Position numbers and translations under genes: made by a program. Positions 13,431 to 17,282 of a stretch of 64,000 nucleotides of DNA are shown piece after piece. Source of the stretch: Nitrosopumilaceae archaeon (GTDB taxonomy: Archaea; Thermoproteota; Nitrososphaeria; Nitrososphaerales; Nitrosopumilaceae). Position 1 is the stretch's first letter. Every line of letters begins with the position of its first letter. The notes beneath the pieces were generated by a model. The model ran no database searches. It was given only the letters and a program-made list of their open reading frames with translations, and was not told the origin of the DNA. Where the stretch lies: NCBI GenBank assembly GCA_965207375.1, contig OZ242274.1, forward strand, positions 32,001 to 96,000, in the 5' to 3' direction.

Positions 13431-14726
13431 CAGTAGATGGAAAAACCTATCAAAAAAGTGAAAAATCGACATATTTTGACAGAAAATTGAATTATTTTTG
13501 ATCTATGGATCTAAAAGAATGGTGAGCCTACCCACTTTAGTGCGTCAACAAAAAAGTGGGCAAACACACCGAAGAGAGATTGGGACAAGGATCTTTAATA
13601 TCTTCTCAAACACACTTGGAACTGCAGGTATACAATTTGGCACAGCAGACAATACAAAATACAAACTAGTAAATTTTACAACAATGTTAACTGAAATGAG
13701 TCGTTCTCGTATCACTGCCGAATCCGTAGCTGCAGATTTTGAAACTAACAAAGATGCACCAGGTGGAAAATGGATACGCAACATGATAAATGGCATGAGT
13801 TCTGATCAAACAGAACATGTCTGCAATGAAATGATACTCCAGACAGCACGACCTGCAATAAAAACAATAATTCACAAAACAGACACACTGATTGCAATGG
13901 ACAAACATCTCATACCAAGATACGACAAGGGCAGTTTGGCTTATCTGATACGGTCCAAATCATACAAGGGCACCACCAAATTTGAGGCTTATGCTACCAT
14001 GCAGATAGTAGCTAAAGATGAAAATCCTACCCTAGACTGTGTTCCAATAACCAAAGACGATTCTGATGTAGATTTCGTGCGTAGATTTGCCAAAAATCTA
14101 CAAAAATACAAGATTCATCCACGCCTTTTGCTGCTAGATAGAGAATTTTTCTCAGTAGAGGTCATGGAATCACTGTACGAAAATCATTATACGTTTCTTA
14201 TGCCAGCAGTAAAAAACGCCATAATCAAAAATAGCATTATAAAATTCCACGAAGGAAAAGCAGATGCAGTGTCGTCTCATACCATGAAAAACAAAGATGG
14301 ACAAGAATTCACCTTTACACTAGTTATCAGAAAATCCAAAAAGTACAATGATCCTGATGCTAAAATAATTGAAAAGTATGTAGTCTTTGCCACCAATTTA
14401 TCACAGGAGCGTGCCATCAAAGAGATTGAGATGCTGCCAAAGGCGTATCGTCGTAGGTGGGGAATAGAGACAGGCTACAGACAGCTAGAACAATTCAGAC
14501 CTAGAACCAGTAGTCGCAATCATCTGTTTCGGATTTTTCTGTTTTTTATTTGCGTTTTCATGCGCAACATGTGGACATTGATGCGATATGATGACGTATC
14601 ACAGTCAAACATTACAATGAGACAGATGATCGGCGCAGTTATGGTGTGTGCTGTACAATATATCAGAATTGTTGGAATGCCGTACGATGCAGGTGGCGCA
14701 GGTTAGGGGTGAATTTCCATCTACTG
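13431..14726 (+). mobile_element. Complete ISH3-family (IS4-like DDE) insertion sequence, 1296 bp
   Basis: Perfect 13-bp TIR cagtagatggaaa / tttccatctactg; 5-bp TSD ATATT at 13426-13430 and 14727-14731; one transposase ORF. Confidence 0.92.
13519..14706 (+). CDS. DDE transposase (ISH3/IS4-like)
   Basis: IAMD, LLLDREFFS and YRRRWGIETGYR (YREK motif); intact frame; likely start ATG 13519. Confidence 0.92.
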   Translation: MVSLPTLVRQQKSGQTHRREIGTRIFNIFSNTLGTAGIQFGTADNTKYKLVNFTTMLTEMSRSRITAESVAADFETNKDAPGGKWIRNMINGMSSDQTEHVCNEMILQTARPAIKTIIHKTDTLIAMDKHLIPRYDKGSLAYLIRSKSYKGTTKFEAYATMQIVAKDENPTLDCVPITKDDSDVDFVRRFAKNLQKYKIHPRLLLLDREFFSVEVMESLYENHYTFLMPAVKNAIIKNSIIKFHEGKADAVSSHTMKNKDGQEFTFTLVIRKSKKYNDPDAKIIEKYVVFATNLSQERAIKEIEMLPKAYRRRWGIETGYRQLEQFRPRTSSRNHLFRIFLFFICVFMRNMWTLMRYDDVSQSNITMRQMIGAVMVCAVQYIRIVGMPYDAGGAG

Positions 14727-14970
14727 ATATTCTCTGGTCATAGTATAGCATCTTCTTCTTCTGGAATCCCTTTTTGCCTGTTAGCGTATGTAGTGTGTCT
14801 TCCAGCTCACTGTACAAGTTTTTTGAGGTGCGTTTTCTTCTAGCAGATTCGTCATGCCATTTCTTCAGAAAATAAAACACGGGTGTTCCTATTAGAGAAC
14901 TTATTGTAGATAATCTAACTATTAACTCCAAACTGTCCTGTTCCCAATAATTTGACAGATATTCTATCAT
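14727..14970 (-). pseudogene. 5' half of the 178-aa hypothetical gene (with N-terminal hydrophobic segment) split by the IS
   Basis: ORF track 14605..14970 reads through into the IS end; the native part stops at the TSD. Confidence 0.85.
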
Positions 14971-15089
14971 TTGATCTTCTTTGCTGGTAATTCAGGGGCA
15001 TCCACTATTCCTACCGGTGCCTCCCTAGCACCAGTAAGTGGACCTTCAAACTGAGTTTCTATAGATTTGATTGCCTTATCATCAGTCAT
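14967..15089 (-). CDS. Putative 40-aa small protein
   Basis: MTDDKAIKSIETQFEGPLTGAREAPVGIVDAPELPAKKIK; its TGA overlaps the ATG of the next gene (ATGA). Confidence 0.45.
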   Translation of the reverse strand: MTDDKAIKSIETQFEGPLTGAREAPVGIVDAPELPAKKIK

Positions 15090-15144
15090 AAAATAAGATC
15101 AGACGTGCTTGCTAATAAATTGTATGAACTCAGCAGTATCTATG

Positions 15145-15364
15145 TGCAGTCTTAATAAAGACTTGGTTGGATTTTACTTGTTGGAGTATGGCTTTCGCTA
15201 GAACAATATCCTTTCTCAAAAATGAAGGTCGGAAATGTATCTATTCGGGCATTAAATCCCAGTACCATGCTTCATCCATTCATTAGGGTCAAAGTGTAGT
15301 TACTTCCCCTGGCATCGAATCCCATACTGTGTTCACACAATTCCCTAACCATAATGATGTCATC
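15145..15364 (-). ncRNA. Candidate bridge RNA / seekRNA
   Basis: 3' non-coding end of an IS1111-type element with two paralogous stem-internal-loop modules sharing GTA(C)TGGGATTYRATGCC...GACC; exact transcript ends unknown. Confidence 0.6.
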
Positions 15365-16415
15365 TCAACTTCGCAGCTGACGTGCAGTGCTTTTTTGTCC
15401 CTCCTTTATGCACGTCTCAAAATCAATCTGTTTAATCAACATCCAAAATACACTGTTTAATAATTTAGCAGCAGCTGCCACCCTTGCCTTTGACCTCCCA
15501 CGCCTTTTTGCAAGACGTTTGTAAAACACACCAACAGGCGTATGTGATTTCCTCTTGTCAGTAACTGCTAGATGTGTAACTACTGCCTCAACAAGTGCGT
15601 GTCTTACTAGAGATGCGCCCATCTTTGTTATGTGTCCATGATGTACAGTATCTGCAGAACGTCTAACTGATGGAACCAATCCAAAATACGATGCCAGATG
15701 ATCTGCATCAGAAAACCTTGCAATATCATCTATTTCAGAGGATAGCACAAGTGCAGTATAGTTGGCTATTCCAGGTATCGTGGTGAGAAGTTGTGCGTTT
15801 TTATCCTCCTTTACTTTTTGTTTGATTTGCAGGTTGGCATACGTGATACTGTCTGTAACAGAGGCTAGATTCTTTAGATGCCTGGTCTATTCTCCAGTTG
15901 TTTAGCTGGATTAGTCTCTTTGTATATGGTGCACAAAATGGTGTTCCAGGTATGTCGATTCCTTCCTGCAACAAAATTCCGTGTATTATGTTCTTAAAGC
16001 GAGTAGACTCTTGGACCATCTTGTGTCTGTATCTGACAAGCTGTTGCTTGTTTACCGTGTCTTCATCTGGTACATGGCATGCTGCAACATAATCTCCACG
16101 CAGGAGGTCTGCAAGAATTTGTGTATCTACCTTATCTGTCTTTCTTTTGGATTCTGCAATGAGTCTGTTCATACGAGGATTGGACAGTATGACATCTAGG
16201 TGCAACTCGTCTCTTATCTGAAAGAATGCCGCCTTCCATACCGATGAGGATTCAATTACCAACTTTGAATCTGGATGCAGATATCCAAGGTTGTCCTTGA
16301 TCTCTCCGGGATTATTTTGTATCTTTTTGTTGGCTAGTTCATTACCGTCTGCATCTATGATAAATATCTGAATAGTCTTTTTGTGAACGTTTAGACCGAC
16401 AAAACAGGGTTCCAT
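15365..16415 (-). pseudogene. IS110-family recombinase (transposase), frameshifted
   Basis: RuvC-like DEDD region (VGLNVHK with D to N, VIES, KTDKVD) plus C-terminal Tnp domain (TIPGI, YFGLVPSVRRS). One extra base near 15880 splits a ~349-aa frame into the two ORF-track pieces. Confidence 0.9.
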
Positions 16416-16817
16416 AGATACCCTCAATTTTACGGTTTTGTGTTTGTTTGCATTGGTGCTTGTAGAACAGGATCTTGTAGAACTTGGACTACTGCCATCA
16501 TCTAATTTCCTTGATCGTGGCACATAAGATTACAAAGCAAGTGTTCCTATTCTGACAGGGTCCTCACCACAACAGTATGAATTTTTAAGCACAAAACATG
16601 TACTTTTTTGTTCACTGTGTCCACAGAAATCTTCATAATCAACTACCGGTGCCTTTTTTTGCTGTTATAGCACAACTCAAATTTTATACAAATTAATTCA
16701 CATCTAGTTTAGACAGAGTTGTACGGTACCCCTAAATCATACATGTGATAAAATTATCTAGTTTTACAGTTCCAAAACACTACAATTGGTCCTATCATCT
16801 AAAATCAGATTATGTAA

Positions 16818-17282
16818 TCAGCTTTCAAATGTCAAATCTATTTGTATAACGTTGATAATTTGGGTCTGTTCTGTTTTGATTCCAGTATCGTCAAATCCGT
16901 GGACCGAAATCTTGTAAATTCCATCAAAGACCTGCCTGCCGTCATTGTTTTTTTGATCCCAAACTATTTGAGCCTCCTGTCTTGGTTCCAAAACAATATC
17001 TGCTTGAGAGATCACAGGAGAAAAAATCACCATTCCAGACAGGCCTGTCACCTTAAAACCGTACTTGTCTTCAAAATACAACGGAGTGCTGCCAGAGTTG
17101 ACTATAGTGACACTTACAGGCTCGCCTTTTTTGTAATCTGACTTTTCTGTAAATACGGTCAATGAGGGCCCCTCAACGTATGTTACATCTGAATTATCAC
17201 GAATGTCAGCAAGAACAAATGTAATTGCTGCACCTGCAAATATGCCGACAATTAGTGCTATTTTGAGACTGTTGGGAATCAA
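16818..17282 (-). CDS. Membrane-anchored/secreted hypothetical protein with Ig-like domain
   Basis: N-terminal TM; TEKSDYKKGEPVSVTIVNSG and WDQKNNDG-x4-GIY beta-sandwich pattern. Confidence 0.75.
   Translation of the reverse strand: MIPNSLKIALIVGIFAGAAITFVLADIRDNSDVTYVEGPSLTVFTEKSDYKKGEPVSVTIVNSGSTPLYFEDKYGFKVTGLSGMVIFSPVISQADIVLEPRQEAQIVWDQKNNDGRQVFDGIYKISVHGFDDTGIKTEQTQIINVIQIDLTFES

Follow-up and report, generated by a model that had tools for sequence, protein, structure and literature searches.

A decayed IS110-family element of IS1111 arrangement in a Nitrosopumilaceae archaeon and the probable two-loop guide RNA family of its relatives

The bridge RNAs and seekRNAs of IS110-family insertion sequences that have been characterised so far come from bacterial elements. 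For the IS1111 group, bridge RNAs were predicted in 93% of the elements held in ISfinder, as Durrant et al. report (2024, PMC11208160). The seekRNAs of this group were described by Siddiquee et al. (2024, PMC11187229), whose account gives sub-terminal inverted repeats of 7-17 bp and a recombinase motif GL-P----S(t)G ending in SG, TG or, rarely, TA. Archaeal IS110 recombinases have been catalogued as proteins, 662 of them in 2,835 archaeal genomes according to one survey (10.1101/2024.06.21.599552), and an atlas of 2026 is described as clustering IS110-adjacent non-coding DNA of bacteria and archaea (10.64898/2026.10.21.760802). Here we analyse an element in a 64,000-nucleotide stretch of a Nitrosopumilaceae archaeon (assembly GCA_965207375.1, contig OZ242274.1, positions 32,001 to 96,000 of the forward strand), hereafter the window, in which positions are counted from the first letter. 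We consider it highly likely that the segment 15138-16532 on the minus strand is a decayed IS110-family copy of IS1111 arrangement, with an RNA carrying a target-binding and a donor-binding loop after its gene. Its relatives would form a family of bridge or seek RNAs of this arrangement that is common in ammonia-oxidising archaea. In the literature we found no description of IS110 guide RNAs for Nitrososphaeria, the class to which the host belongs; the element lists supplementing PMC11208160 and PMC11187229 may already include archaeal members, and the 2026 atlas, as far as its description goes, may well hold this RNA family unnamed.

The non-coding end after the recombinase gene consists of two modules (Table 1), a layout visible by eye in at least 26 of the 30 loci read after the stop codon, with stems changing in step. 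Twenty-six sequences from these loci were aligned by MAFFT; left out were L019 (deletion in module 1), L035 and L043 (no complete RNA there), and L037 and L039 (large loop insertions). On this alignment RNAalifold recovered the helices P1, P2, P4 and P5, that is, 22 pairs, 15 of them with compensatory changes. The covariance model R1 (139 positions, 25 pairs, P3 added by hand) gave 55 matches in 57 sources, including all 20 loci fetched later, a full copy of a second subfamily (B, see below) and three of the five excluded loci. The original prediction had suggested such a model as a check, and the outcome is a conserved two-loop RNA family. In the model-made alignment of 47 distinct sequences, 95.7% of the cells of the five-helix fold are paired versus 84.6% in shuffles (none of 500 reaches it), compensatory changes occur in 19 of 25 pairs, and the covariation score is 0.459 versus 0.241. 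Sliding the partners by 1-3 columns lowers pairing to 36-46% of cells. Taken separately, P1 is paired in 96.0% of cells, P2 in 97.4%, P3 in 85.5%, P4 in 97.8% and P5 in 97.4%, with compensatory changes in 6/7, 4/5 and 3/3 pairs of P1, P2 and P3, respectively; the window copy has a G.A mismatch in P3 (CCA for CCC). G.U pairs are frequent (e.g. 44/47 and 46/46 cells at two positions), and the fold therefore belongs to the strand of the gene.

The two modules had been described as paralogous, with an inner motif occurring twice. Both points hold: the inner hairpins resemble each other within each element, GAGGGAGATCCTC standing twice in one lineage and TGGGATT..ATGCC twice in the window. The stem proposed to close module 1, TTAGGG (15348-15343) with CCCTAA (15288-15283), is present as described. 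For module 2, the sequences ATGAAG (15275-15270) and CTTCAT (15227-15222) are indeed there, but in fixed register they pair in 57.9% of cells versus 57.3% in shuffles; a competing stem, GGATG/TRTCC, pairs in 97.8% and is thus the supported closing stem. For an outer stem of free register, the mean longest run was 6.6 bp with the own partner and 6.5 bp with a foreign one (1301 of 5000 permutations). The statement that both modules end in GACC fails, as this ending is not conserved in homologues. A scan of 14900-16800 against Rfam 15 (E up to 10) returned nothing relevant, its lone match being unrelated (21.2 bits against 54) and outside the element. Between module 2 and a TATA-like box further on, a short motif TAGCG...GC(C/T)A is conserved (window 15189-15200 and homologues) and hairpin-like in many elements. 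As regards distribution, a protein search placed recombinase relatives in 79 of 401 genomes of the class (23 of 81 genera), a tally that counts one unpublished genome from which no locus or alignment was taken. Among 151 sampled genomes, 21 have R1 matches, which cover 14 of 48 genera; two of these genomes have at least 20 copies each. A search of genome contigs gave one distant locus (30% identity), and no R1 match in that locus.

The genome (4.3 Mb, four contigs) contains 14 places that resemble the element. One group, subfamily A, comprises two intact copies with 91% identity to window 15131-16270; window 16108-16533 instead has 88% identity to the full copy of subfamily B at C1:355.65-357.07 kb (matching part C1:356634-357071). 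The 5' end recurs at nine other places, where similarity runs as far as window 16532-16536 and the upstream flanks diverge just before GTAATC; the element thus reaches about 16532/3, some 110 bases past position 16426, where the original prediction had ended it. At the 3' end, similarity to three copies, full or partial, and to a further fragment continues down to 15130-15135 and is lost beyond. All four right junctions of subfamily A, that of the window included, read T-ACTG before their sequences part, which makes 15137-15134 a target remnant. Comparison with empty sites in other subfamilies sets the exchange point at a shared T, usually TA. With these limits, the TGAG said to be repeated outside both inverted repeats lies inside the element on the left, and the empty site rebuilt from it rests on a wrong boundary. 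The nonamers taken for the sub-terminal inverted repeat, GTATCTATG (15136-15144) and CATAGATAC (16413-16421), do occur at these positions, but 16413-16421 is internal and the nonamer at the ATG is absent from intact subfamily-A copies. The true sub-terminal inverted repeat is TATGTGC (16526-16520) with GCACATA (15147-15141). At 7 bp it stands at the lower limit of the IS1111 range, and many relatives share ATGTG/CACAT alone. Contigs of three DNA runs from one study, inspected over 14700-17000, showed neither a joint nor an empty site at the locus; they break at repeat borders (loose ends 15134 and 16534), which merely restates the copy comparison.

The gene fits the same outline. In 40 of 52 elements, 353-419 codons can be read without a stop from a GTG near the left end, and the neighbouring ATG frame ends within 52 codons in all but one, an element with a doubtful left end. 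Both IS110-family Pfam domains are present; in the window they are spread over two frames because of a single G at 15881/15882 that the two intact copies (402 amino acids) lack; run contigs of other copies have one base fewer at 15881. An intact paralogue, with 91% DNA identity to the window over 15131-16270, scores 217.7 bits against NCBIfam NF033542, 'IS110 family RNA-guided transposase' (cut-off 140). The window and the intact copies carry the C-terminal Ser motif GLVPSVRRSA, whose SA is outside the pairs listed in PMC11187229. About 226 nt separate the stop (15365) from the joint, and 9 nt precede the GTG. The IS1111-type location at the 3' end, claimed earlier, is therefore borne out: the long non-coding end follows the gene, and within each loop the top-strand guide lies 5' of the bottom-strand guide. 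We also note a strongly conserved stretch, CAAACAAACAGATTA(G/C)(G/C), about 100 bases inside the left ends of most elements (e.g. L003, L017-L033); it falls in a Lys/Arg-rich N-terminal extension (peptide QTNRL), and the constraint may be on protein or nucleic acid.

Module 1 had been proposed to be the loop that binds the target, and comparison with flanking DNA supports this role. Its 3' side consists of 4-6 bases identical to the left flank, then T, then AA(C), the last bases being the element's own tip, and its 5' side is the reverse complement of [T] plus 6-9 bases of the right flank. For statistical tests, guide columns were taken from the model alignment and flanks from each locus; 7 of the 55 matches were dropped since their end could not be located, and the remaining 48 collapse to 36 distinct guide pairs. 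The mean contiguous match to the left flank was 2.64 bases for own and 0.32 for foreign guides, with four or more bases matched in 16/36 own versus 4/1254 foreign pairs. On the right the mean best-of-8 match was 5.97 versus 4.28, and six or more bases matched in 25/36 own versus 95/1258 foreign pairs. None of 20000 permutations reached the observed mean on either side.

Uninterrupted sites add to this. Four copies of one genome are flanked by ...TTTGC and GATTCATA, and the uninterrupted form TTTGC-T(T)-GATTCATA occurs 149 times versus 0 for the reversed pattern. Another genome has 41 uninterrupted sites TCAAT-TAT/TGT/TAC-GCATAAAG versus 0 for the control, and many of these sites face opposite ways at a distance of about 1.5 kb, the arrangement expected for the two ends of an insertion sequence. 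Flank sequences that occur so often without the element are not part of it. A third genome holds four uninterrupted sites, three with the expected single-T spacing, and three variants with different loop-1 guides, each of which fits its own site on the right (6-8 of 8 bases); on the left two of the three match by 4 and 6 contiguous bases and one by only 1. The expected variation of loop sequences with target sites is thus seen, guides differing between variants in step with their sites. Filled and empty sites of these genomes place the exchange at one T common to target and element, and most also fit a TA core. A core of AC or TAAC was ruled out by the empty sites, and a strict TA core fits all cases except one genome with TG sites, hence our wording of a shared T, usually TA. 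When predicted 14-mer targets were sought genome-wide with at most 2 mismatches, the counts were 40, 24 and 165 versus 37, 28 and 153 for reversed patterns; specific repeat families alone stand out.

For module 2 the partner would be the element itself, and a role as donor-binding loop, also proposed earlier, is supported. The octamer ATAGATAC is found at 15244-15237, as the original prediction had it, and the 3' side of loop 2 equals the right end. Both change together across elements (ATAGAT, ATGGAT, ATGGGT, AAGGTA; tails AC, AG, AT, AA, TAC), and the match is 7.63 of 9 bases for own versus 6.38 for foreign ends (0/20000). The 5' side complements the left tip, with pairings TAACCAT-ATGGT.., TAACTAT-ATAG.. 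and TAATCAT-ATGAT.., and scores 4.60 of 8 own versus 4.21 foreign (1/20000). C or T at tip position 5 (TAACCAT/TAACTAT) goes with G or A in the 5' side, in all TAACTAT elements except L042. Such repeated coordinated changes are, in our view, a better argument for loop 2 than the scores. Some 30 bases in from the left end, the elements have a motif that nearly equals the 5' side as well (7 of 7 bases agree in most lineages) and forms an inverted repeat with the tip. For the window copy, the right end is the only one that loop 2 matches. We rejected a reading in which the loop-2 3' side would span the circle junction, since what follows the tail is part of stem P4; a weak match to the right flank is seen for the two bases following TA (0.87 versus 0.52 of 2, 13/20000), in a test that counts copies of one family several times. 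Two neighbouring loci of one genome show unusual joints: in L049 the right end is joined directly to DNA encoding the loop-2 3' side of another copy, and in L023:918-1051 it is joined to DNA encoding a loop-1 3' side. DNA that codes for guides resembles the ends of the element itself and has apparently served there as a pseudo-site.

Several points weigh against our reading of the RNA and its guides. Pair counts on the model-made alignment lean towards R1, a bias of which the RNAalifold result on the MAFFT alignment is free, and the fold of the single window sequence is no better than that of shuffles (z = 0.37; 131 of 200 shuffles fold at least as well). Of the 36 guide pairs, 14 match the left flank by 0 or 1 base, either with many copies at poor sites or through later rearrangement. 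Gaps of one base between guide and junction occur in the two intact copies and in 2/4 copies of another genome, and exact cleavage positions cannot be read from sequence. The flanks of the window copy fit poorly to its own guides and to those of subfamily B (left 4/5 for B; right TACTG only). Finally, transcription, processing and recombinase binding of the RNA are all deduced.

Could the conserved region be something other than a guide? As a 3' untranslated region or terminator, or a set of DNA sites bound by the recombinase, it would owe its flank matches to misdrawn ends; it is known here from DNA alone, belongs to no Rfam family and ends in a T run. Yet the flanks are found uninterrupted many times without the element, the guides vary between variants in step with the sites, and the compensatory and G.U pairs indicate that a single strand with the polarity of the gene folds, all of which makes this reading very improbable. 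A narrower alternative accepts the RNA but lets it guide target choice only, like a short seekRNA, with module 2 as scaffold and the ends recognised by the protein through the sub-terminal repeats. An 82-nt ISEc11 seekRNA with target matches is reported to have sufficed to move a target-flanked mini-element (PMC11187229), the left tip is only modestly matched by the loop-2 5' side, and both loop-2 tests are confounded by, and can be inflated through, co-inheritance of guide and end in one element. On the other hand, the 3' side and the right end changed together several times, the coupling of tip position 5 to the 5' side has the single exception named above, and both modules share the same loop-hairpin-loop build. 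We hold target-only guidance to be unlikely, and read both loops as guides in what follows.

Table 1. Positions of the element, its candidate RNA and related features. Plain numbers are window positions.
Feature	Position	Strand	Remarks
Element	15138..16532	-	joint T at left tip (16532) to joint T at right end (15138); about 1.39 kb; from copy comparison
Bridge/seek RNA candidate, 137 nt	15219..15355	-	covariance model R1, 112.2 bits (sequence within training set)
Module 1 (putative target-binding)	15282..15349	-	P1 15349-15343/15288-15282; P2 15338-15334/15298-15294; P3 hairpin 15324-15309
Loop-1 5' guide AACACAGTA	15325..15333	-	reverse complement TACTGTGTT should read joint T and right target
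Loop-1 3' guide GGGAAG-T-AAC	15299..15308	-	left target, joint T, element's first bases
Module 2 (putative donor-binding)	15231..15277	-	P4 15277-15273/15235-15231; P5 hairpin 15261-15246
Loop-2 5' guide AAGCATGGTAC	15262..15272	-	complements subfamily-A left tip TAACCAT, not the window copy's TAATCTT
Loop-2 3' guide AATAGATACA	15236..15245	-	equals right end ...CATAGATAC
Run of five T after module 2	15218..15222	-	similar T runs in many homologues
TATA-like box TTTATTAA	15151..15158	-	points out of right end
Right end	15138..15147	-	sub-terminal repeat GCACATA (15147-15141), then GA, then joint T (15138)
ACTG, target remnant (ISH3-like tip)	15134..15137	-	outside element; empty ends ...GGAA[CG]-T-ACTG, then divergent
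Left tip TAATCTTATGTGC, subfamily-B type	16520..16532	-	includes sub-terminal repeat TATGTGC (16526-16520) and GTG start
Internal left-end motif TAGATGATGG	16495..16504	-	elsewhere equals loop-2 5' guide and inverted repeat of left tip; mismatched to own loop 2 here
Recombinase N-terminal open reading frame	15801..16523	-	GTG 16523-16521, ten bases inside element; DEDD_Tnp_IS110 (Pfam), E 3.1e-21
Recombinase C-terminal open reading frame, other frame	15365..15748	-	Transposase_20 (Pfam), E 1.3e-14; 94% identity to intact copies
Subfamily-B-derived stretch	16270..16533	-	blastn gives no alignment to subfamily-A copies
Flanking repeat GGTGAGGACCC...CTTGCTTT	16534..16581	-	four other genomic copies, uninterrupted
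Intact subfamily-A copies	C1:625.3-626.8 kb and C1:1528.3-1529.8 kb		
ISH3-like copies	C1:626808-628051, 1428567-1429810, 1678488-1679731		open reading frame at L003:2971-4128; outside window

The window copy itself is a dead, frameshifted chimera, whose left end comes from one subfamily and whose RNA and right end come from another. Its loop 2 is of A type and matches neither the left tip nor the internal motif, both of B type, so that this copy could not recognise its own left end; judged by its sequence, it cannot work on its own. The left junction, CTTTG-T-AATC, fits the subfamily-B guide in 4/5 flank bases, and on the right the first five bases of the flank (T-ACTG...) match the reverse complement of the loop-1 5' guide. 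With a B-like left and an A-like right junction, recombination between two elements would be the simplest account. The element abuts the flanking repeat at 16534-16581, which reads GGTGAGGACCC(A/T)G(T/C)CAGAATAGGAACACTTG... in five copies in all at no more than 3 mismatches, three of them ending in ...TTTCATACA. This repeat suggests another history, namely a simple single insertion into a site GGTGAGG...CTTGCTTT/CATACA by a copy perhaps still mobile in trans. The left flank ends in ...CTTGCTTT, the right flank has TTCATACA seven bases from the junction (an 8-base match to the left-flank repeat that recombination leaves unexplained), and uninterrupted copies of the repeat read CTTGCTTTCATACA; moreover, the window RNA reaches 112 bits, and four empty GGAAG ends fit its loop-1 3' guide. 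But about a dozen extra bases, a G on the left and ACTGCTGAG on the right, could not be accommodated in such a site, identity to subfamily A extends no further than 16270, where subfamily B takes over, loop 2 is mismatched to both left-end sequences, the gene is frameshifted and P3 carries its mismatch. A single insertion is accordingly improbable, and we retain the chimera.

Intact copies of the same genome show what such guides select. Subfamily A has its insertion site in a 1.24-kb ISH3-like element (DDE_Tnp_1), five bases from the tip; the ends of this ISH3-like element read ...AATCGGAA[C/G]-T-ACTG and its tips both read CAGTA[C/G]TTCCGATT, in two alleles. Two intact ISH3-like copies provide four empty GGAAG ends, and the third has GGAAC ends, one with an intact subfamily-A element and one empty. 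In the intact A copies, which occupy GGAAC ends, the guide is GGGGAAC-T-AAC, and in the window RNA it is GGGGAAG-T-AAC; the sole guide difference on that side thus tracks the target allele. Subfamily-B guides read TTTTG-T-AAT and, as reverse complement, ACATGTTCC; they fit a 20-copy repeat beginning TGTACTTGTTCAC, and the right flank of the B copy continues the TGTACTTGTTCAC repeat. In this B copy (L004, C1:355650-355790) the right end is duplicated about 60 bases apart, TATA-like box included, and L034, from another genome, has two right-end motifs 15 bases apart. In the window, a separate ISH3-type insertion with a DDE_Tnp_1 transposase gene lies at 13498-14706. A 40-codon open reading frame (14967-15089, minus strand) lies about 45 bases past the right end, downstream of the outward TATA-like box, and may be driven by the element.

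How might such an element move? By analogy with bridge RNAs and seekRNAs, the structured two-loop RNA would stay bound to the DEDD recombinase and select its DNA partners by base pairing. Exchange would take place at the T (usually TA) common to target and circle junction, and the loop-1 3' guide would continue through the joint T into the element's first two or three bases. Preferred targets would be the tips of other insertion sequences or high-copy short repeats. For the intact copies the predicted circle junction has the right end ...CACATAGA, the T and the left end AACCATATGTG....

Expression may depend on the same circle. Our pattern for a TATA-like motif is found 12-17 nt before the CAC of the right end in 40/49 elements, and the other nine have A/T-rich variants there. 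A circle joined at the T would put this box at about -30..-23 of the GTG, which lies ten bases inside the left end; an archaeal TATA box usually stands at about that distance before the start site. The circle would thus give a leaderless recombinase mRNA with the guide RNA as its 3' part, and the integrated copy would be left without a promoter. The gene's stop codon falls inside the first stem of the RNA or immediately ahead of it, and module 2 is followed by a run of T. It is thus probable that the RNA is excised from the 3' portion of the recombinase transcript, a route proposed for ISEc11 as well. This T run is a possible archaeal terminator setting the RNA 3' end. More speculatively, base pairing between the tip and the internal left-end motif could conceal the start in transcripts that read through. 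Active and naturally retargeted RNA-guided recombinases in ammonia-oxidising archaea, together with a TATA box effective only in the circle and a leaderless GTG mRNA, a start-hiding fold-back, bottom-strand guides that span the junctions by 2-3 bases and a core of one or two bases, make up a picture that we put forward tentatively, with slightly less than even confidence.

The guide code (left target, T, right target) is supported by most copies through their flank matches and, in five cases, by uninterrupted sites, and it explains at least 20 copies in tips of other insertion sequences in some genomes. Covariance model, guide code and natural retargeting together make a concrete, testable system. 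To our knowledge, the ammonia-oxidising archaea are a group without genetic tools; if the proposal is true, a first such tool for these organisms could be made by programming intact copies, for example the two found here.

Among described systems, the closest in arrangement is the IS1111 group, as represented by ISEc11, ISPa11 and ISKpn4 (PMC11187229, PMC11208160). In those accounts it shares with the archaeal family a DEDD recombinase with both Pfam domains, a long non-coding end after the gene, sub-terminal inverted repeats and a choice of site that differs per variant, and the guide binding the top strand lies 5' of the one binding the bottom strand, as in IS1111-type seekRNAs (PMC11187229). 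Unlike these examples, the archaeal elements come from hosts of one class and their RNA family is outside Rfam 15. Their sub-terminal repeat is short (7 bp in the window, 5-6 bp in many relatives), the Ser motif is GLVPSVRRSA versus SG or TG, and the TATA box in the circle would take the place of the bacterial IS1111/IS110 junction promoter, as its archaeal counterpart (PMC11187229). IS621, as described in PMC11208160 and PMC11208158, likewise has a target and a donor loop, each reading both strands around a short shared core, and the short product-matching guide extensions resemble its handshake guides (PMC11208158; PMC13626964). However, the IS621 RNA is reported in the left end, before the gene, whereas the archaeal one follows it; in each loop the strands come in the opposite order, the core reads CT versus T(A), and the archaeal extensions, of 2-3 bases, are on the bottom-strand guides, unlike those given for IS621. 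The proteins are weakly similar (phmmer E 2.5e-06 to IS621, 8wt6, and 9.7e-08 to ISCro4, 9t56). As to targets, tips of mobile elements or high-copy short repeats are also reported for IS4321/IS5075 (terminal repeats of the Tn21 family) and ISPa11/ISPpu9 (REP) (PMC11208160, PMC11187229, PMC12288879). Unlike in those elements, the host here is archaeal and the targets are an ISH3-like insertion sequence and unnamed repeats.

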